The translations under genes were made by a program, and so were the position numbers. Shown here one piece after another: positions 2,338 through 52,254 of a stretch of 64,000 nucleotides of DNA (position 1 is its first letter; each line of letters begins with the position of its first letter). The DNA comes from a virus: positions 34,937-98,936 of the IMG/VR virus record IMGVR_UViG_3300017991_004311; one strand, written 5' to 3'. The notes under the pieces were generated by a model that saw only the letters and a program-made list of their open reading frames with translations, did not search any database and was not told where the DNA came from.

Positions 2338-2679
2338 GTGGTTGTCATGAACACGTCCGATATCGCCTTTCTCGGCAACGACGGCGTGATCTCGACGGTC
2401 GAGGAGCAGATGGACGACAGCGGGTTCGACCCCGCCTCGATTCGTCTGCTCTTTTCCGTTAAGGACAACCTGAAGGGGGGGTTGGACGCGCTCATCGCCT
2501 ACCTGTACTATTGGGAGGGGAAGACCCAGTCGGAGATAGCCAGGATCATCGGCGTCTCCGCCTCCTTCGTGTTCAACCGCCTGCAGGACTTCCGTGAAGC
2601 CGTGCGCGGTTCCCGGGAGTGCCGTGAACTCTGGGAAGAGATGGTCGGGGGCAACGGCGACGGGGAGGTCACCGGATAG
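2338..2679 (+). CDS. sigma70 region-4-like HTH protein
   Basis: LYYWEGKTQSEIARIIGVSASFV; start uncertain (frame is open further upstream, a GTA at 2281 follows a G-rich RBS-like run). Confidence 0.6.
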   Translation: MVVMNTSDIAFLGNDGVISTVEEQMDDSGFDPASIRLLFSVKDNLKGGLDALIAYLYYWEGKTQSEIARIIGVSASFVFNRLQDFREAVRGSRECRELWEEMVGGNGDGEVTG

Positions 2680-2680
2680 C

Positions 2681-3499
2681 ATGGAGATACTCACGAGGTC
2701 ACCGCAGCCGATTCACCGCCCGTGCTGGGAGCTGAGCGACCGGAACACCCCGGCGGTGCGTTGGGTGGACGAGCATATCGGCATCCCGTTGTGGAGCAAA
2801 CAGATCGAGGTATTGAACGCGGTTTTCACGCAGGGGTCCGTCACGGTGAGGAGCGGGCACGGGATCGGGAAGACGCTCATCGCGGCCGTGATCACGCTCT
2901 GTTTCATCGACACGCTCAGGCCGAGCAAGGTCATCACCACCGCCCCAACCTGGCGCCAGGTGGCCCATATCCTCTGGGCGGAGATCAACACGCTCTATCG
3001 CAAGTCGAAGATCCCGCAGCTCATCGGGGGGCGGATGCTGAACATGAGCTACTGGCTCAGCGACGAGCATTTCGCGGTCGGGTTCCACCCCCGCGAGAAC
3101 CGCCTGGAGGAGTTCCAGGGTTACCACAGCCCGAACATCCTCATCATCATGGACGAATCCCCCGGCATCTCCCAAGTGCTCTACGACGCGGCGATGGGGC
3201 TCATGACCACGAACGCCTACATCCTCCAGATCGGCAACCCGACCGAGCCGGCGGGGCACTTCTGGGGATCGTTCCAGGACGATGCGTACCACAAGGTGCA
3301 CGTGTCCTGCTTCGACAGCCCGAACGTGACCGGGGAGGCGCACATCCCCGGGCTGGTCACGAGGGAGTGGATCGAGGCGAGGAGGAATGACTGGGGGGAG
3401 GACGACCCCCGCTACAGGAACAAGGTCCTGGGCGAGTTCTCCGACACCACGGAGGACCGCGGCATCCCGATGGATTGGATCAGGGCGGCGTTCGCATGA
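2681..3499 (+). CDS. terminase large subunit, ATPase half
   Basis: Walker A VRSGHGIGKT, TAPTWRQV, Walker B IIMDE, IGNPT coupling motif, RNKVLGEF. Confidence 0.9.
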   Translation: MEILTRSPQPIHRPCWELSDRNTPAVRWVDEHIGIPLWSKQIEVLNAVFTQGSVTVRSGHGIGKTLIAAVITLCFIDTLRPSKVITTAPTWRQVAHILWAEINTLYRKSKIPQLIGGRMLNMSYWLSDEHFAVGFHPRENRLEEFQGYHSPNILIIMDESPGISQVLYDAAMGLMTTNAYILQIGNPTEPAGHFWGSFQDDAYHKVHVSCFDSPNVTGEAHIPGLVTREWIEARRNDWGEDDPRYRNKVLGEFSDTTEDRGIPMDWIRAAFA

Positions 3500-4236
3500 G
3501 GGTGCTCGGGGGGGATTACGCGAGGATGGGACCGGACCAGACGGTGTTCTGCCTCGCCGACAACGAGGGATGGTCGGAGCATGTCGTGCACGGGTTCTGG
3601 GAGTTCTCCGGGTTGAAGAACCCGCAGCGCGTGCAGAGGACGAGGGACCTTTATGTGTCAGAGCATCCGATGTTCGTGTCGGTGGACGCGGTGGGGATCG
3701 GCTCGGGCACGGCGGACGATCTGGAGGCGATCGGGGTCCCGGTGTTCCGGGTGATGGGGGGAGCGGCGGCGTTCAACCCGGACTACTACGATCTGCGTTC
3801 GGAACTGTTCTGGATCATGCGGAGGAAGTTCGAGCGCCATATCATGCACATCGTCGCCCAGGGGGTCACGAAGGCGCAGAGGGAGAGGATCATCCGGGAG
3901 GTCAGCAGCCTCCGTTATTATACCACGTCGAAGGGGAAGATCAGGTTTGAGTCGAAGGAGGAGTACATCAAGCGGGTCGGGAAGTCCCCCGATTATGCCG
4001 ACACCCTCTCCTACACCATGGTGACCATGGAGATGTGGGAAGGGGCGATGGGCGACCAGGGCGACATCGAGGTGCTCGCCGGCGATCCCGGCCCGTATCC
4101 GAGGAGCACGTGGGGCGGAGGGGGGATCGGGAATCGGGACAACATCCCCGACGACCCGGATAGGGGAGCGTTCGGCGAGGTGTCGATCGTGCGATTCGGA
4201 GTCAGGGACGACTACGACGATGAGGATGACGGGTAG
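3496..4236 (+). CDS. terminase large subunit, RNase H-like nuclease half
   Basis: Starts RVLGGDYARMGPDQTV, VDAVGIGSGTADDL, ESKEE.IKR.GKSPDYAD; ATGA overlap with the ATPase half. Confidence 0.88.
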   Translation: MRVLGGDYARMGPDQTVFCLADNEGWSEHVVHGFWEFSGLKNPQRVQRTRDLYVSEHPMFVSVDAVGIGSGTADDLEAIGVPVFRVMGGAAAFNPDYYDLRSELFWIMRRKFERHIMHIVAQGVTKAQRERIIREVSSLRYYTTSKGKIRFESKEEYIKRVGKSPDYADTLSYTMVTMEMWEGAMGDQGDIEVLAGDPGPYPRSTWGGGGIGNRDNIPDDPDRGAFGEVSIVRFGVRDDYDDEDDG

Positions 4237-4269
4237 GAAGAGGGGTTTGGTGTTAATATAAAATGAGAA

Positions 4270-4445
4270 GCCTCCGTTGTGGTGGAATAGGTAGACACTA
4301 GTGAAAGGCATAAGCGAGTCTAGTGGTGTAAATTTGGGAACACGTCTCCGAAACTATAAACGATTTGCCATCGTAGGAAGTAGGAGGGATACCAGGTTAG
4401 AGTCCTGGCGGGACATCCAAAGTGCAAATCCTTGGCAGCGGGGGC
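4270..4445 (+). ncRNA. nested double tRNA-like RNA (no usable anticodon)
   Basis: Outer stem GCCTCCGTTG/CAGCGGGGGC with Leu-type D arm and T-like arm encloses an inner D arm (GTGT/ACAC), TCTCC/GGAGG stem and CCAGG-TTAGAGT-CCTGG T arm; intergenic. Confidence 0.6.
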
Positions 4446-4464
4446 ATACAAGAGGAGGAATGGC

Positions 4465-4866
4465 ATGAAGCTCGACACTGAGGCGTTGGTGAAAGCGTTG
4501 GGGACTCTGGAGGGCATGCAGAAGAAAGTGAATGCCCAGAAAGCGGCTATTTTGGCGATGCTCCCGGTCCGCACGGGTGACGCGGTATTCTATGACGGGA
4601 ACCCCGGCAAGGTGATTGATAGGAGCGTCATGGGACCGCCGTTCTGGATGAAGGTGTCCGTCATGGTGATTATCGGCGAGAAGGGCAGGGATTTTGATTA
4701 CGCCGATGTTGACCAGAAGACGCTGCGGTTCCCGTTCGATGATAAGGCGGTAGGGAATTATTCGCCCCGTGACCACAAGGCCGATTGGGACAAGTTGACG
4801 TTCTTCCCCCGGAGGGAGGAGGCGGTTGAGGACCCACTTCAACGCCCGGATATGGAGGGATGCTGA
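4465..4866 (+). CDS. hypothetical protein
   Basis: AGAGGAGG RBS, ATG 4465, fits operon packing. Confidence 0.65.
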   Translation: MKLDTEALVKALGTLEGMQKKVNAQKAAILAMLPVRTGDAVFYDGNPGKVIDRSVMGPPFWMKVSVMVIIGEKGRDFDYADVDQKTLRFPFDDKAVGNYSPRDHKADWDKLTFFPRREEAVEDPLQRPDMEGC

Positions 4867-4867
4867 C

Positions 4868-5221
4868 TTGGACGCTGTAACAGTGGGTTCGGCGACGATA
4901 TTCATGGGCGCGTGGCTCGGATTCTGGGGTCTCGTCATCAGCAGGAGCTACAAGGGGCAGTTCGATATCCTCATCCCTGTGGTGGTGTTCCTGGTCCTGG
5001 CGGGTATAGTCTGCACCGTGGGCCGGTGGATCGTCCCGGTGGCGTTTCTCAATCTGGTCGTGGGCATCATCCTCGGCACGCTGTTCATCCCCACGTGGAA
5101 GGACAACAAGGAGAGGAACGACAAGCCGGGCCAGCTGATGGCGGTGCTCATGATGGGGGTGCCGGGCGCGGTCGGACTGGGAAGCGCGGTGCCGGCGCTG
5201 ATGACGATATTGGGAGGGTGA
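4868..5221 (+). CDS. hypothetical membrane protein (about 4 TM)
   Basis: GGAGGG RBS before TTG 4868; hydrophobic segments. Confidence 0.6.
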   Translation: MDAVTVGSATIFMGAWLGFWGLVISRSYKGQFDILIPVVVFLVLAGIVCTVGRWIVPVAFLNLVVGIILGTLFIPTWKDNKERNDKPGQLMAVLMMGVPGAVGLGSAVPALMTILGG

Positions 5222-5224
5222 ACG

Positions 5225-5458
5225 ATGAGAACACGCAAAGAAATCGTTGACGGAGTGAGGAGCGTGAGGGTGGGCACGGAGGACGACTTCGCGCCGGATG
5301 CTCCGCAACAGCCACCCCCGTGGGTTATGCCCCAGGCGCGCGATCCGATGCTGCGGACGCAGGCCGCGATCGACTACGCGCTGCTGGAGGTCATGCTCGA
5401 CTGCAGGGGCCTGCTCCAGAGGATATTGAACAGGCTTCCGAAAAAAGAGGTGAAGTGA
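5225..5458 (+). CDS. hypothetical protein
   Basis: GGAGGG RBS, tight packing before the portal. Confidence 0.6.
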   Translation: MRTRKEIVDGVRSVRVGTEDDFAPDAPQQPPPWVMPQARDPMLRTQAAIDYALLEVMLDCRGLLQRILNRLPKKEVK

Positions 5459-5459
5459 C

Positions 5460-6896
5460 TTGACGAGACAGACCCCGGCCGTGGTCACGGTCGGTGACAT
5501 ACTGGAGGGCAGGCTCCCGTTCAGGCGCGGGAAGTACGGCACGATCCTGACGATCGACCAGGGAAGCTGGGAATATGCGAAGGGGAAGCGGTGGAAGAAG
5601 CCGGAGAAGCGCCTGGACCGCTACGAGATGGGGTACGAGTATTACTTGGAGCACCAGTTCGCCCGTCCGGTCACCAACCTGACCGCGAGCGCGGTCTTCG
5701 GCAAGGGCGTCCACTTGGTCGGGGAGAACGACCACGTGGACTTCGCCCGGCCCATCATCGACCAGTTGGACCATTTCATGGTGGGCATCGAGAGCAGTAT
5801 CTACGGGGACAATTTCATCCGCATCTTCGACGCTCCCCCGGACAGCGGCCGTCCGGTCGACGTCGCGCTCATCCCCCCGGTGACGATCGCGGACAAGATC
5901 ACCGCGGATGGGAACGCGATGGAGCCGACGGCGTACGTCCAGAAGTTCAGCAACGAGCAGAAGGGCGAGTCGATCCCGGCCTCCGACATGGTGCACGCGA
6001 TGGTCAACGCGGTCTCGAACTCGCTGTTCGGCAACAGCGACCATTTGCACTTGTTCTACTGGTACGACCTCTACGATTCGATGACGGAGGAGGCGGACAA
6101 GCGCCGGCTTTTCGCCTCCCAACCCATCGGGAAATTCACGGGCGTGAACATGCGCTACCGGACGCAGCTGAAGACGCGGATCAACAAGGTCGCGCGCGAC
6201 AAGGACCAGAAGACGGGCCTGCGCCGGAGCCTGCCGCCCGGGACGCAGCTCATCCTCCCCCCGGGGGCCGACTACGTGTTCGCGGAGCCGAGGGGGGCCT
6301 TCGACCTGGAATCGATGCTGAACCGGATCGCGCTCATCATCGCCATGGCGGCGGAGGTGCCGATCCACTGGCTGAACCTGGGGAAGGACGTGAACCGCGC
6401 CACCAGCACTAACATGACGTTCCCGTTCATCAAGAAGATCCAGCGCCGTCAGGAGATATTCTCGCGCAAGTACGAGGAACTGCTGCGCAAGTCGTTCGCC
6501 CGGCTGAAGGCGCAGCGCGAGAAGGGGGAGAAGTTCCGGAGGCTGCCGAGCGCGAGGATCCTCGCGGCGGACGAACTGGACGTGCGCGTGGAGTTCCCGC
6601 CCATTTTCGACTACGAGCTGGAGGACGTGGAGCGGGCGCTAAAGTCGGTCACGCTCCTGTACCAGCAGGGACTGGTGAGCCACAAGACGGCGGTGGACAC
6701 GGTGTGCAAATACCTCGGGCTCGACGTGGAGGAGGAGGAGCGATTGTTGGATGAGGAGCGGGAGAAGGCGGAGACCGCGGAACAGGAGTACAGTCCGGTC
6801 GACCGTCTGGTCCAGGAGATCGGGAGCATGGTGAGCGACGGCGACATCGACCGGGACACGGCGAACCGGATGATCGAGAAGTTGACGAAGGCGTGA
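5460..6896 (+). CDS. portal protein
   Basis: 478 aa, between terminase and MuF; SIYGDNFI, AAEVPIHWL..G.DVNRATS, VEFPPI portal-like segments. Confidence 0.85.
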   Translation: MTRQTPAVVTVGDILEGRLPFRRGKYGTILTIDQGSWEYAKGKRWKKPEKRLDRYEMGYEYYLEHQFARPVTNLTASAVFGKGVHLVGENDHVDFARPIIDQLDHFMVGIESSIYGDNFIRIFDAPPDSGRPVDVALIPPVTIADKITADGNAMEPTAYVQKFSNEQKGESIPASDMVHAMVNAVSNSLFGNSDHLHLFYWYDLYDSMTEEADKRRLFASQPIGKFTGVNMRYRTQLKTRINKVARDKDQKTGLRRSLPPGTQLILPPGADYVFAEPRGAFDLESMLNRIALIIAMAAEVPIHWLNLGKDVNRATSTNMTFPFIKKIQRRQEIFSRKYEELLRKSFARLKAQREKGEKFRRLPSARILAADELDVRVEFPPIFDYELEDVERALKSVTLLYQQGLVSHKTAVDTVCKYLGLDVEEEERLLDEEREKAETAEQEYSPVDRLVQEIGSMVSDGDIDRDTANRMIEKLTKA

Positions 6897-14035: not shown

Positions 14036-14168
14036 GACGGGGGTAGCTCAGTTGGTAGAGCGCTAACGTACCCTGTGCGATTGTTCGGCCTTTTCAGGTT
14101 GCGCAGTGGAGGGTTACTTCTCCTGCTAAGAGAGAGGTCGCAGGTTCGAGTCCTGCCCCCCGCCACCA
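14036..14168 (+). ncRNA. Y RNA (YrlA-like) in tRNA order with encoded CCA
   Basis: TAGCTCAGTTGGTAGAGC D arm, GCAGG-TTCGAGT-CCTGC T arm, 8-nt acceptor GACGGGGG/CCCCCGCC + ACCA; anticodon arm replaced by a long paired insert; adjacent to Ro60. Confidence 0.8.
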
Positions 14169-14190
14169 TATTTGTATTGGGCAATGATTC

Positions 14191-14277
14191 GAGAGAAGTG
14201 GCGCAGGAAAGGGATACTTCATCATACGGAGATGACGCCGAAAGGCATGTTCCCTGTCCGATTGTTCCACTTCTCTT
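14191..14277 (+). ncRNA. second Y-RNA-like RNA without a tRNA domain
   Basis: Terminal stem AGAGAAGTGG/CCACTTCTCT; shares GCGCAGnnnAGGGnTACTTC and CCCTGTnCGATTGTT with RNA 1. Confidence 0.7.
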
Positions 14278-14299
14278 ACTATTTTAAAGGGGGGGATGA

Positions 14300-15793
14300 A
14301 TGAAGTTCAACCAGCCGGTTGCGAACAGCACGAAGACGGTCAATTTCGAGGGGGCGGTGAGCTATCGCACCGATCCCAGAACGGAACTAGTTTCGCGGGT
14401 GCTCTGCACGCTCGTAGGTGAGCCGAAGTTCTACGCTTCGGGGGAGGAGAGCGATCAGGAATTGGTGACGCTTTTGCGCAGTGTGGGCGCAGCTAACCCT
14501 GAATTCTGCCTGAAACTGGCGGCGTACGCCCGCAACGAGATGCACTTGCGCTCGGTGCCGCAGCTCATTTTGGTGGAGATGGCGCAGCTCGACAGCGTGA
14601 GGGGGACGGGTCTGCTCTTGAAATATGCGCCCGCCATCATCCGCAGAGCCGATGAGATCACCGAGTGCATCGCCTACCAGATCGGCAAATTCGGACGATC
14701 AATCCCGAAGCGGTTGAAGAAGGCAATCGCGCTCACGTTCAATTCCTTTTCCCGCTACCAATTCGCCAAGTACAACCGCGATGGCCAGGTAAGGATGCGG
14801 GACGCCATGTTCCTTTGCCATCCCAATCCGAAGGACGAGGAGCACGGGTTGATATTCAGGCAGTTGGCGGATCAGACGCTGGAGCCTCCGAAGACGTGGG
14901 AGGTTATCATCTCGGAGAATGGCAGCACGAAGGAAGCATGGGGAGAGGTCGTGCGCTTGTGGCTGGAGAGCCCCCGGTTTGGGAACTATATGGCGGCGCT
15001 TCGGAATCTGAGAAATCTTCTACAGGCTAAGGTTGACGCGGGATTGATGCGGCGGGTATGCGATCAGCTCCGGGATAGGGAGAACGTAAGGCGGAGCAAG
15101 CAGCTCCCGTTCCGTTTTTTGTCCGCGTACCGCCAGATTGAGCGGGTTCCGTCTCCGTTTTCCGGCATGGTGCTGGCGGCCGTCAGCGACGCCATGGACG
15201 CGAGCGTGACCAACATCCCTCATCTTCCAGGCATGACCGGGATTTTGGCTGACTTATCGGGTTCGATGGAATCGCCGTTGTCGGAGCGTGGTTCGCTCAC
15301 ATATAGCGATGTCGGGGCCGTATTGGGCGCGGGCATCGACACTATATCAAATGGATTTGTGGTCGGGTTCGGCGAGATCGCGGAATTGGCGGTGCTGAAT
15401 CGGCGGGATAGTGTGCTTACCAATGCACAGAAGATTCGGCGCATGGATGTCGGGGGAAGCACGAACGCATGGAGGGCAATGGAACTTCTGGAGCGGGAGC
15501 ATATTGTGCTCGATCGGGTGATCTTATTGTCGGACATGCAGTGCTGGGACAGTTCCCCGTGGTCCGAGAGTTTCGCTGATTCGTTCCGTTCCTACCGGAA
15601 GACCGTTGCCCCCAAGTGTCTGTTGTATTCGGTTGATCTTGCGGGCTATGGGCAGGGGGTGCAGATCCCTCAGGGCGAATATGGGGTGGCGTTGCTTGCC
15701 GGATGGTCGGACCGGTTGTTCCAGTTCATCTCTGGGTGGGAAGAGAATCGGGAATCGCAGGTGAAGGCAATCGGGAAGTATGATGTGAATTGA
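14300..15793 (+). CDS. rsr: Ro60/Rsr TROVE-vWA RNA-binding protein
   Basis: LAAYARNEMHLRSVP, RADE, YQFAKYNR, TWE, YMAALRNLRNLL, SKQLPFRFLSAY, MIDAS DLSGSM, T and SDMQ. Confidence 0.92.
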   Translation: MKFNQPVANSTKTVNFEGAVSYRTDPRTELVSRVLCTLVGEPKFYASGEESDQELVTLLRSVGAANPEFCLKLAAYARNEMHLRSVPQLILVEMAQLDSVRGTGLLLKYAPAIIRRADEITECIAYQIGKFGRSIPKRLKKAIALTFNSFSRYQFAKYNRDGQVRMRDAMFLCHPNPKDEEHGLIFRQLADQTLEPPKTWEVIISENGSTKEAWGEVVRLWLESPRFGNYMAALRNLRNLLQAKVDAGLMRRVCDQLRDRENVRRSKQLPFRFLSAYRQIERVPSPFSGMVLAAVSDAMDASVTNIPHLPGMTGILADLSGSMESPLSERGSLTYSDVGAVLGAGIDTISNGFVVGFGEIAELAVLNRRDSVLTNAQKIRRMDVGGSTNAWRAMELLEREHIVLDRVILLSDMQCWDSSPWSESFADSFRSYRKTVAPKCLLYSVDLAGYGQGVQIPQGEYGVALLAGWSDRLFQFISGWEENRESQVKAIGKYDVN

Positions 15794-15887: not shown

Positions 15888-16084
15888 CCTGTGGATAAGG
15901 TGTAACCTAGCGTTACATGTTATCCACAAGTTATCCACAGACAGTCTTTAGATTTCAATCAATCCCTTTCTTGCTGAAATCCTGTAAATCCGCTCCGATC
16001 CTGCCTTGCGTCTATTCCGGGGGAAAATGGGGTTCCTTGAGCCTGTGGATAAAGTGTAACCTAGCGTTACAGGTTATCCACAGG
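15888..16084. repeat. 197-bp DnaA-box element, copy A
   Basis: Five TTATCCACA boxes; both ends are TGTGGATAA-nn-TGTAAC-N5-GTTACA-nn-TTATCCACA; inverted copy at 52058-52254. Confidence 0.9.
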
Positions 16085-35095: not shown

Positions 35096-35139
35096 AGGTG
35101 TAACGCTAGGTTACATGTTATCCACAGGTTATCCACAGG
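35096..35139. repeat. half copy of the DnaA-box element
   Basis: AGG-TGTAAC-GCTAG-GTTACA-TG-TTATCCACA-GG-TTATCCACA. Confidence 0.85.
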
Positions 35140-52057: not shown

Positions 52058-52254
52058 CCTGTGGATAACCTGTAACCTAGCGTTACACCTTATCCACAGG
52101 CTTAGGGAAGCTCATTTTCCCTCAGAATAGACGTAAGGTAGGATTGAAGCGGATTTACATTGTTTTAGCAAGAAATAAATTGATTGAAGTCTAAAGGCTG
52201 CCTGTGGATAACTTGTGGATAACATGTAACGCTAGGTTACACCTTATCCACAGG
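52058..52254. repeat. 197-bp DnaA-box element, copy B (inverted relative to copy A)
   Basis: Reverse complement aligns end to end with 15888-16084; five DnaA boxes. Confidence 0.9.

Follow-up and report, generated by a model that had tools for sequence, protein, structure and literature searches.

A tRNA-like fold nested within another at a phage gene border belongs to a family of intercistronic elements and may be a processing signal

We analyzed a tRNA-like element in a phage genome, within a 64,000-nucleotide stretch of DNA referred to throughout as the window. The element is 176 nt long (window 4270-4445) and fills the 228-nt noncoding gap between the stop codon of the terminase gene (4236) and the ATG of the next gene (4465), on the same strand as both. 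The ATG lies 19 nt downstream of it, with the sequence GAGGAGG in between, and simple scans of the gap revealed neither a promoter nor a terminator. The downstream gene, orfA, had no match outside its own cluster in a search of 1.84 billion representative proteins, and no Pfam family was found for the neighboring ORFs. The terminase and portal genes adjoin in three relatives, and others carry different inserts at this place; the element and orfA-C are therefore a lineage-specific insertion. A collection of cultured phages contained no relative by DNA or portal protein, and an initial portal search of viral contigs found none. Four public DNA runs over the region consist of contigs and show no variants, and they thus supply no covariation; no RNA run is listed among the public runs that contain the sequence. 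The virus is present at sediment and seawater sites. A second copy, E1, is encoded in the same virus (genome 13281-13422), and the TROVE (Ro60) gene lies 9.9 kb downstream of the element on the same strand. The features are as follows.

3475-4236, plus strand: upstream gene, encoding the nuclease portion of the large terminase; 33 nt separate its stop codon from the element
4270-4279, plus strand: 5' strand of the closing helix, extended and acceptor-like, GCCTCCGTTG; pairing probability ~1.0
4280-4298, plus strand: UG and outer D hairpin of tRNA-Leu type, GTG-GAATAGGTAGA-CAC at 4282-4298
4299-4316, plus strand: 18-nt linker from the outer D hairpin to the inner fold; no conserved counterpart elsewhere in the family
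4317-4419, plus strand: inner fold overall (AGTCTAG/CGGGACA, GTGT/ACAC, TCTCC/GGAGG, CCAGG-TTAGAGT-CCTGG)
4317-4323, plus strand: inner acceptor-like 5' strand, AGTCTAG; weak, five of seven pairs with 4409-4415, pairing probability ~0
4324-4343, plus strand: inner UG and D arm, GTGT-AAATTTGGGA-ACAC, of E1-like design
4345-4387, plus strand: central stem-loop (TCTCC/GGAGG, GAA/A internal loop, ACT/AGT, AUAA/AGGA loop, ACGAT-TTGCC-ATCGT hairpin); pairing probabilities 0.7-0.9
4392-4408, plus strand: inner T arm, CCAGG-TTAGAGT-CCTGG, near-canonical save for A at the C56 position; pairing probability 0.43
4409-4419, plus strand: inner acceptor-like 3' strand, CGGGACA, then TCCA, the CCA overlapping the outer T-like stem
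4417-4435, plus strand: outer T-like hairpin, CCAAAG-TGCAAAT-CCTTGG, abutting the closing helix; one A.C mismatch, degenerate loop
4436-4445, plus strand: 3' strand of the closing helix, CAGCGGGGGC, the same as the E1 3' strand; family covariation
4446-4464, plus strand: 19-nt spacer with Shine-Dalgarno sequence GAGGAGG at 4452-4458, followed by ATG at 4465
4465-4866, plus strand: orfA, the 133-aa ORFan that the element would directly serve; no Pfam or PHROG family
14037-14164: tRNA-shaped Y RNA beside Ro60 in the same genome
14300-15793, same strand as the element: TROVE gene

A sequence check located every motif that an earlier note on this DNA had named, each at its window position. The note's description of one tRNA-like fold nested inside another proved correct, with all listed motifs present and the outer scaffold above chance. 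The closing helix, GCCTCCGTTG paired with CAGCGGGGGC, comprises 10 bp including two G.U pairs; the homologous 5' strand reads GCCCCCGCTG in E1 and GCCCCGCTG in the copies F0-F2, L063, and L091 described below. Rather than a 7-bp acceptor stem with discriminator and CCA, the outer layer has this 10-bp helix followed by AUA, and the inner layer has a stem with five of seven positions paired, followed by UCCA. Both layers lack a 7-nt anticodon loop, as had been claimed: the anticodon stem-loop (5 bp/7 nt) is replaced in the outer layer by the 18-nt linker plus the inner fold, and in the inner layer by a 5-bp stem, TCTCC/GGAGG, which encloses a structured 33-nt loop containing the ACGAT/ATCGT hairpin. 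In the outer layer, the D arm conforms to canonical tRNA but the T loop reads TGCAAAT, a degenerate form; in the inner layer, GGG is present in the D loop, and C56 is missing from the T loop (TTAGAGT). The inner fold keeps U8, A14, GG, A21, G53, T54, T55, A58, and C61, and its T arm is the sole motif of the GGTTNRANYCC type within the element. The likening of the outer D arm to that of tRNA-Leu held as well, its 19-mer being identical to the annotated tRNA-Leu D arm of Bacteroides phage DAC19. Thus, given this identity and the near-canonical inner T arm, the tRNA ancestry, as judged by sequence, is real.

Relative to the class II tRNA-Leu of phages and bacteria, the element shares the D arm over 19 nt and a U8-G9-type junction, but it has no anticodon arm, discriminator, or CCA, its helix is 10 rather than 7 bp long, its T loop is degenerate, and it is recognized neither by ARAGORN nor by the Rfam tRNA model. 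ARAGORN reported 0 tRNA or tmRNA genes in the window, and no Rfam family matched at E values up to 10 over 4150-4560; with membership in RF00005 defined as a score of at least the 29-bit gathering threshold or detection by ARAGORN, the element falls outside that family on both counts. When introns were allowed (-i 0-300, default threshold), the element was again undetected, the matches being E1, which was called a tRNA-Leu-like gene, and the Ro60-linked RNA only. ARAGORN detected the inner fold only at -ps85, in a forced parse that is one of 156 noise-level hits in the genome. The check with these two programs that the earlier note had proposed thus gave no match to a known Rfam family or to an intron-containing tRNA. 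A tmRNA was rejected on the negative ARAGORN tmRNA and Rfam searches, the length of 176 nt, and the lack of CCA after the closing helix; retron, integron attC, and group I intron readings were considered and set aside for want of their defining motifs.

Thermodynamic folding gave pairing probabilities of ~1 for the closing helix, 0.8 for the central stem, 0.43 for the inner T arm, 0.13 for the inner D arm, and ~0 for the outer D and T hairpins and the inner acceptor-like stem. The full model of the earlier note has an energy of -39.1 kcal/mol, versus -55.9 for the minimum free energy structure, a rod-like fold in which CACTAG (4296-4301) pairs instead with CTAGTG (4320-4325); that pairing has a probability of 0.28. 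The outer D and T hairpins, which nearest-neighbor folding of this copy did not predict, are aligned to the D and T arms of the family by the family models described below.

E1 and the element share the 10-bp closing helix, the UG, a D arm, a T arm directly next to the helix, and a flank that leads to a Shine-Dalgarno site and ATG, with the E1 flank, CATCACAAGGAGG, resembling the Shine-Dalgarno flank of the element. The helices of E1 all have pairing probabilities of 0.7-0.9. A covariance model built from E1 alone (R1) had one match on the two strands of the 64-kb window, at 4270-4445 (19.2 bits, E ~0.02); model R2, run with default filters, had none anywhere in the window. The inner fold is also related to E1: a model of the E1 core found its best match at 4324-4408 (12.1 bits, E 0.008, in a 4-kb search), and local alignment of the inner fold with E1 gave p ~0.004. 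The D arm of E1, GCGT-TCTGGTGAAA-ACGC, and that of the inner fold both consist of a 4-bp stem and a 10-nt loop, with a compensatory change from C-G to T-A, and the inner T arm with its flanking bases is identical to the E1 T arm at 16 of 19 positions, as counted by eye in the local alignment. The central stem-loops have a like layout, with a different stem sequence in E1 (CGTTCGG/CCGAACG), and the local alignment places the flanking motifs GAA(G)ACTAT and GAAGTA in both. Together, the E1-core model and the local alignment lend the inner fold modest support. This inner cloverleaf, with its resemblance to the D arm, central stem, and T arm of E1, is unique to this copy; the insert of this copy is a second, E1-like cloverleaf.

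The element belongs to a previously unlisted family of tRNA-shaped intergenic elements that occurs in several phages. R1 found copies in two related viral contigs, including F1 and F2 in record G001 (53.6 bits, E ~1e-10), and had no family match in four of the five first related records; G001 also contains F0, and further copies are F2', from the related record G010, and L091. Model R3 gave weaker matches to L063, L044, and three places in L088, with no family match in four of five further records. We count E1, F0-F2, and L091 as members, and L063 and L088a-c as candidates. The family is characterized by a 9-10-bp GC-rich closing helix, read as a 7-bp acceptor stem plus 2-3 pairs, by UG followed by a D arm, by a T arm stacked directly on the helix, and by the lack of an encoded CCA; a freely variable insert occupies the position of the anticodon arm, with the centre ranging from ~40 to 140 nt. 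F2 scores 27.0 bits against the Rfam tRNA model, with a 50-nt insert in place of the anticodon arm, and the present copy scores 63.7 bits against the family model, the training set of which includes it. When viral and metagenome contigs were scanned for exact matches to the two end sequences or to the central motifs common to E1 and the element, none turned up; the sole genome-contig match, L013, lies in coding sequence and was rejected as a chance match. L018, L020, L022, L023, L089-L090, L092, L095-L111, and most of L027-L087 were set aside as chance matches to coding DNA or as ordinary tRNAs.

The earlier note had called for homologues and covariation; the 11 sequences collected, among them weaker candidates found on three additional contigs, support the closing helix, the D stem, and the T stem. 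In these helices 95% of cells are paired, a count that is inflated because the family alignments were fitted to the model, and double compensatory changes are present in 10 of the 19 pairs. The covariation score was 0.445, versus 0.194 for shuffles (0 of 500 reach it) and at most 0.09 with slid partners. The closing helix and both stems show covariation, and RNAalifold independently predicts the same three helices.

Eight members are intercistronic (E1, E2, F0, F2', L088a-c, and L091). All eight lie on the coding strand and have a start codon 11-29 nt 3' of the element, each after a purine-rich, Shine-Dalgarno-like run. In six, a stop codon closing a long open frame is found 2-34 nt upstream; none was detected for F2', and L091 is outside this count. 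The downstream ORFs encode proteins of 47-133 aa, which are not related to one another.

RNase P and RNase Z read the D/T elbow and acceptor-T stack, and RNase E cuts just 3' of tRNAs; stack and elbow together are the footprint of the tRNA end-processing enzymes. Retention of this stack and elbow around an unconstrained centre fits this footprint, as it fits the t-elements of plant mitochondria, reportedly described by Hanic-Joyce et al. in 1990. The present copy, like a t-element, is a noncanonical tRNA-like fold at a gene border, with a stop codon 33 nt 5' and a start codon 19 nt 3'. By analogy, we tentatively propose, with a confidence that falls a little short of even, that the element is the phage equivalent of a t-element, in which a tRNA-like fold within a polycistronic transcript directs cutting by RNase P and by RNase Z or RNase E. 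The element encodes a structured, tRNA-derived RNA inside the late-operon transcript; RNase P and RNase Z would recognize its D/T elbow and acceptor-T stack, and RNase E would cut just 3' of it. We infer that the polycistronic RNA would be cut at both ends of the element, which would part the terminase message from that of the small accessory ORFs downstream, leave the latter with a short leader that retains the Shine-Dalgarno site, and set free a stable tRNA-shaped by-product. Among the roles suggested in the earlier note, that of an RNase P processing element fits best: the intercistronic position ahead of a Shine-Dalgarno site and ATG, the conservation of only those parts used by processing enzymes, and the freedom of the anticodon-arm site all speak for it. 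The analysis establishes the structure, the family, its covariation, and its placement between genes; that the transcript is cut, by which enzymes, and what becomes of the freed RNA is what we infer.

Some features sit less easily with a processing signal. A paired discriminator position is unfavorable for RNase P cleavage, and the 9-10-bp helix leaves that position paired. The unpaired central motifs GAA-ACUAU and GAAGUA, common to E1 and the element, would be superfluous for a plain processing signal, and the outer T loop is degenerate in this copy. The sequence of the closing helix is conserved beyond structural need, which hints at sequence-specific recognition by some factor.

The MALAT1 mascRNA, a tRNA-like structure reportedly described by Wilusz et al. 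in 2008, and the tRNA punctuation of mitochondrial transcripts, said to have been described by Ojala et al. in 1981, resemble the proposed arrangement in placing a tRNA or tRNA-like fold in a long transcript as a site for RNase P and RNase Z. Both are eukaryotic, nuclear or organellar, and have neither a nested second cloverleaf nor a link to a ribosome-binding site. The closest parallel is with plant mitochondrial t-elements, which are RNase P and RNase Z cutting signals near mRNA ends (Forner et al. 2007, PMC1920247). Both kinds are noncanonical, tRNA-like cloverleaves that retain the T arm and form part of a long transcript, close to the end of an mRNA; the present elements differ in that they are phage-borne, their closing helix is extended to 9-10 bp, a large variable insert takes the place of the anticodon arm, and the distance to the Shine-Dalgarno site and start codon is fixed and short. 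Cutting is known for the plant elements and is proposed for the present ones.

If the elements are cut by tRNA-processing enzymes, some phages would punctuate their operons as mitochondria do, which we did not find described for phages in the literature searched. Such cutting would also account for the independent expression of small accessory genes that have entered an essential operon, as here between terminase and portal. The RNA family is currently missed by tRNA finders and Rfam, or is open to mislabeling as intron-bearing tRNAs. Its members could provide compact natural insulator parts for synthetic operons, and the nested copy, a rare natural case of one tRNA-like fold inside another, could serve as a test object for site choice by RNase P and RNase Z. 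An extension of the processing reading, which we think improbable as it stands, is that the elements are portable expression adaptors for phage accessory genes, each a tRNA-shaped module with its own Shine-Dalgarno flank. Cutting of a read-through transcript by host tRNA-processing enzymes would then free a small ORF for translation, modules would move or recombine between sites, and a module landing in another module would yield the nested double cloverleaf.

The released double-elbow RNA might instead act in trans as a tRNA mimic, either as a scaffold or adapter for proteins, including the phage Ro60, or as a decoy for host factors that bind or cleave tRNAs; we consider this rather unlikely. 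The genome encodes Ro60, a tRNA-shaped Y RNA, and a second Y RNA, and tRNA-shaped adapter RNAs are therefore a theme of this phage. Moreover, central motifs and an internal-loop layout recur in E1 and the element that a cutting signal could do without, and UCCA stands at the end of the inner fold; in bacteria, RNase P cuts YrlA RNAs, which also have CCA added (Chen et al. 2014, PMC4201824). With YrlA and the tRNA-shaped Y RNAs (Rfam RF02553), the element has in common a tRNA-like D/T elbow joined to a non-tRNA module, but simple scans revealed neither a promoter nor a terminator belonging to it, its arms are not permuted, its centre is variable rather than a conserved docking helix, and it has no Rfam match to YrlA. 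The Ro60 docking motif is generally GNCGAAN0-1G or GGUCCGA (PMC4201824) and was defined as CUGUSCGAUUGUUC in this phage. Its phage form, CTGTSCGATTGTTC, occurs only in the two RNAs that adjoin the Ro60 gene (window 14073 and 14254) and is absent from E1 and the element even with two mismatches allowed; nor is there a GNCGAA-type match inside 4270-4445. The Y RNAs described in the literature are encoded no more than ~4 kb from the Ro60 gene (PMC4201824), and no TROVE gene was found in the five other records with model matches, four of which are fragments. With the docking motif confined to the RNAs beside the Ro60 gene and the element 9.9 kb away, the earlier suggestion of a third Ro60 ligand is not supported. 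Against a trans-acting mimic, the central domain of the family is freely variable, and the strict position before start codons would be left unexplained.

The fold might also act in cis uncut, stabilizing the message from the edge of the ribosome-binding site or offering a standby or regulatory platform to the ribosome. The constant, short spacing to the start codon (11-29 nt in all eight intercistronic members) would suit such a role, and the C-rich 5' strand of the helix (CCUCC) is complementary to the GGAGG of the Shine-Dalgarno site just 3', so that opening of the helix could mask that site. A match of this kind is, however, expected by chance in a GC-rich helix beside GGAGG, and the tRNA-specific D and T loops, which action without cutting would not need, are exactly what is conserved. 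We regard this reading as doubtful.

At the DNA level, the element could be a mobile palindrome of the MITE or REP type with a tRNA-derived interior, in which the 9-10-bp inverted ends are recombination or transposition sites and the RNA fold is incidental. The terminal inverted repeats are indeed conserved around a variable interior, copies are nonsyntenic among related phages, F1 and F2 stand in tandem where one relative has F2 alone, and the same 9-bp repeat pair flanks a complete tRNA-Ala in a metagenome contig. Compensatory changes nevertheless keep both the D and the T stem paired, the invariant bases of the tRNA loops persist, and every one of the eight intercistronic copies points the same way with respect to its neighboring genes (p ~0.004 if random); no target-site duplication was seen, and no transposase is adjacent. 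We consider a mobile palindrome very unlikely.

A decaying tRNA pseudogene or a functional intron-bearing tRNA would account for the tRNA-Leu D arm in the outer layer and for the retained invariants (U8 to C61) and UCCA end of the inner fold, but it is hardly credible, given that no removal of an insert restores an anticodon stem-loop, that ARAGORN with introns is negative at its default threshold and Rfam tRNA at E up to 10, and that the helices are kept by wobble and compensatory changes among phages whose portals are only ~54% identical, which argues against neutral decay.

The position between terminase and portal had led the earlier note to raise a packaging RNA, for which we found no support: E1 and the copies in relatives lie at unrelated places, and related phages are without such an RNA between these genes. 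The element resembles the phi29 pRNA in length (176 versus ~174 nt) and in lying beside packaging genes, but the pRNA is not tRNA-like, the paralogues and relatives of the element are away from packaging genes, and related phages lack it at the junction; a phi29-type pRNA was rejected on negative Rfam searches, in which the element had no pRNA match.

An archaeal host was considered as well, since the best match of Ro60 is in a haloarchaeal virus (36% identity). It was dropped because the window contains 12 perfect DnaA boxes, versus 0.2 expected, and a TTGACA-N16-TATAGT promoter precedes the Ro60-linked RNA.

E2, the 176-nt element at window 4270-4445, sits in a 228-nt noncoding gap between the large terminase gene and a small ORFan in an uncultivated virus, whose 98,936-bp record has direct terminal repeats; the window covers positions 34937-98936 of that record. 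Simple scans of window 3900-5600 found no promoter or terminator. The host is most likely a bacterium, because the window contains 12 perfect DnaA boxes, where 0.2 are expected by chance, and a TTGACA-N16-TATAGT promoter. Where contigs from sediment and seawater metagenome runs of several studies cover window 3600-5400, they show zero differences; two additional runs hold short fragments only.

Features of the window
stop at 4236: large terminase, nuclease part, upstream of E2
ATG at 4465: orfA, a 133-aa ORFan, downstream of E2
between orfA and the portal gene: two further small ORFs
5460-6896: portal gene, 3' of the small ORFs
14036-14168: tRNA-shaped RNA adjoining the Ro60/TROVE gene (14300-15793) on its upstream side, found by ARAGORN with introns allowed
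15890-16082, 35118-35137 and 52060-52252: three clusters of perfect DnaA boxes, TTATCCACA, 12 in all

All motifs that the earlier note had listed for E2 were found where it had placed them. The outer D arm, which it had assigned to the tRNA-Leu type, shares 19 identical bases with the D arm of an annotated tRNA-Leu from Bacteroides phage DAC19, and tRNA-Leu genes are among its best short matches in cultured phages. That note had seen no 7-nt anticodon loop in either fold. ARAGORN reported no tRNA or tmRNA in the window, and Rfam gave zero matches to E2, even at E up to 10. With introns allowed and the default threshold, E2 was again not reported by ARAGORN, and as a tRNA it fails every standard test (ARAGORN, Rfam, ARAGORN with introns). 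Its inner fold was reported only at a threshold that yields 156 hits genome-wide. In the thermodynamic ensemble, the closing helix (10 bp, 4270-4279 with 4436-4445, two G.U pairs) has a pairing probability of about 1 and the central stem-loop one of 0.7-0.9; the inner T arm reaches 0.43, the inner D arm 0.13, and the outer D hairpin, outer T hairpin and inner acceptor-like stem are all near 0. The folding free energy is -39.1 kcal/mol for the full nested model and -55.9 for the minimum-energy structure, and the whole element folds mildly better than its shuffles (z = -2.0). Single-sequence evidence secures the closing helix and the central stem-loop of E2 only.

When introns were allowed, ARAGORN found two tRNA-like genes in the whole genome, the Ro60-adjacent RNA and a paralogue of E2, designated E1.

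genome 13281-13422, outside the window: E1, found by ARAGORN with introns allowed

E1 folds as a clean cloverleaf, with pairing probabilities of 0.7-0.9 for all helices. On both strands of the 64-kb window, the sole match to a covariance model built from E1 only was 4270-4445, end to end (19.2 bits, E about 0.02). The two elements have the closing helix in common: the 3' strands are identical, and the 5' strand of E2 differs at two positions, both C-to-U, with pairing kept. In both, UG follows the closing helix and precedes the D arm, the T arm adjoins the helix, and the similar 3' flanks carry a Shine-Dalgarno site and then an ATG at 17-19 nt.

By local alignment and a second model, the nearest counterpart of E1's D arm, central stem and T arm is E2's inner fold (window 4317-4419). 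The D arm is built alike in the two, a 4-bp stem carrying a 10-nt loop, and one stem pair differs by a compensatory C-G to T-A change. The central stems occupy the same place with differing sequences (E1 CGTTCGG/CCGAACG, E2 TCTCC/GGAGG), in both cases between the motifs GAA(G)ACTAT (5') and GAAGTA (3'). Over the T arms and adjoining bases, 16 of 19 positions match by an eye count on the local alignment. This alignment of the E1 core with the inner fold has a p of about 0.004, and the top match of an E1-core model in a 4-kb search was 4324-4408 (12.1 bits, E 0.008). Once the two sequences are aligned by their shared motifs, the chance of five flanking bases pairing on each side is ~0.005-0.01 by our own estimate, (6/16)^5. 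Given the resemblance of its inner fold to the E1 core, E2 reads as an E1-like cloverleaf inside a second, tRNA-Leu-type scaffold that carries E1's closing helix; the same likeness supports the earlier note's idea of one tRNA-like fold nested in another. The sequences suggest that E2 may have arisen by nested duplication or insertion. Of the eleven sequences collected, E2 is alone in carrying a T-loop-type motif at a distance from the 3' end.

The motif ATGAG(G/A)A precedes both E1 and E2 (window 4263-4301; L012 772-864), opening a short frame of 12 or 30 codons that extends into the closing helix's 5' strand; both frames encode ...RCG..., and at E1 the ATG overlaps the TGA of the upstream gene. 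These frames may encode a leader peptide or may have arisen as a side effect of the duplication.

We reached nine related viral loci via portal homologues (about 50% identity), and an E2-like element between terminase and portal is absent from all nine. The two genes are adjacent in three of them, and others have different inserts, such as an endonuclease-like or methyltransferase-like ORF. Since these relatives have no element at the junction, E2 and the three small ORFs are a lineage-specific insertion. On the full related records, the E1 model found strong matches away from the junction; relatedness was confirmed for the contigs holding F1/F2 and F2'.

Family members and a shared motif
L019 13213-13493, one related contig: F1 and F2, in tandem
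same contig, further along: F0
another related contig: F2', identical to F2
window 4376-4384 in E2; also in E1, L063, L044, L088 and L091: AGUAGG/GAAGUARG motif

The motif recurs in many members, either in the variable centre or on the 5' side of the T stem, and in E1 and E2 it pairs with the upstream ACU of the common GAA-ACUAU motif. The centres of F1 and F2 are unrelated to each other. At L021 8453-8564, F2 stands alone after the same upstream gene as the pair in L019, a difference that indicates probable gain or loss of an entire element with its 8-nt spacer. Against the Rfam tRNA model, F2 scores 27.0 bits (threshold 29 bits), with a 50-nt insert instead of the anticodon arm.

L091, L063 and three L088 copies came from pattern scans whose matches were screened with the family model; ordinary tRNAs and tRNA-shaped Y RNAs were recovered alongside them. 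Eleven sequences were gathered in which the three helices of the outer fold proposed in the earlier note covary, with a score of 0.445 versus 0.194 in shuffles (0 of 500 reached 0.445) and at most 0.09 when partners were slid as a control. Across the closing helix, D stem and T stem, 95% of cells are paired, a percentage that tends to be high because the model was used to fit the alignments; the slide control is still clear, and so are the pair types, with CG, GC and AU all seen at the first pair of the T stem, for instance. Changes on both sides occur in 10 of 19 pairs, a five-sequence set gave the same picture, and RNAalifold independently predicts all three helices. Between their D and T arms, members differ in length from about 40 to 140 nt and do not align.

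Genomic context was compared for eight members (E1, E2, F0, F2', the three L088 copies and L091). All lie on the coding strand, with a start codon 11-29 nt 3' of the element that opens an ORF of 47-133 aa, and all have what we read as a purine-rich, Shine-Dalgarno-like run ahead of it. The seven members other than L091 were checked for a long open frame ending just 5' of the element: in six its stop codon is 2-34 nt away, and none was detected for F2'. The downstream proteins are mutually unrelated, no known family was found for them, and element positions are non-syntenic between related phages.

What the family keeps is the acceptor-T coaxial stack and the D/T elbow, with the anticodon arm replaced by anything. 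On a tRNA, RNase P, RNase Z and the CCA-adding enzyme recognise these parts, and tRNA-like folds within long transcripts are already known from organelles and MALAT1. The closest described analogue is the plant mitochondrial t-elements: their tRNA-like folds are non-canonical, the T arm is conserved, and mRNA ends produced by RNase P and RNase Z fall at the element borders (PMC1920247). Based on the conservation of the enzyme-read parts and on this analogy, we tentatively favour the reading that E2 may be a cis-acting cutting signal, freeing the small-ORF message from the terminase message. The absence of an encoded CCA would suit RNase Z, and the A/U-rich single strand directly 3' of the helix would suit RNase E. 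Against a cutting signal, the 9-10-bp helix keeps the discriminator position paired, its sequence is conserved beyond structural need, and the central motifs common to E1 and E2 are superfluous for cutting. We found no Rfam family for these elements and, in the literature searched, no description of intercistronic tRNA-like elements in phages; what is new is the occurrence in phages, the lengthened helix, the constant association with a ribosome-binding site and the nesting seen in one copy.

A decoy or other trans-acting role for E2, which we consider unlikely, would be compatible with cutting, which would release a stable tRNA-shaped RNA. That the family is a DNA-level mobile palindrome is very improbable. 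In its favour, the inverted ends are conserved, copies are non-syntenic, F1 and F2 are in tandem, and in a metagenome contig a complete tRNA-Ala lies between the two halves of the same 9-bp pair; against it, the covariation is of the RNA type and orientation is uniform.

L094 2451-2551, metagenome contig SDBT01205675.1: complete, canonical tRNA-Ala(CGC) with G3.U70 and encoded CCA

This tRNA is flanked by GCCCCGCTG ... CAGCGGGGC, the pair that closes the phage elements, and is a second example of a whole tRNA shape nested within the family closing helix.

The earlier note had also proposed a Ro60 ligand or a packaging RNA; neither gained support: the phage Ro60 docking motif common to both RNAs beside the Ro60 gene is missing from E1 and E2 even with two mismatches allowed, and for packaging only the location speaks. 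At 9.9 kb, E2 is further from the Ro60 gene than published Y RNAs are from theirs (within about 4 kb; PMC4201824), and no TROVE gene was found in five other records with model matches, four of them fragments. The tRNA-shaped RNA beside the Ro60 gene scores 42 bits against the Rfam tRNA model; its anticodon arm is interrupted by a 68-nt insert, and its CCA is encoded. It is followed by a second RNA, which is Y-like (pair at window 14037-14278); both contain CTGTSCGATTGTTC, and the TTGACA-N16-TATAGT promoter lies ahead of them.

The large terminase is encoded by two overlapping ORFs in different frames, an ATPase part and a nuclease part (window 2594-4236). Since the same frame change recurs in every related locus with both parts (L003-L011), the split is conserved, as two genes or through a frameshift, and does not stem from misassembly; the parts are set further apart in L009 and L010, with 0.6-1 kb between. 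The portal homologue P0008 has 811 aa and a LAGLIDADG-type domain (PF14528), and the portal match at L009 3488-5899 is interrupted by ~950 nt; both of these relatives' portal genes look like cases of intein or endonuclease insertion.
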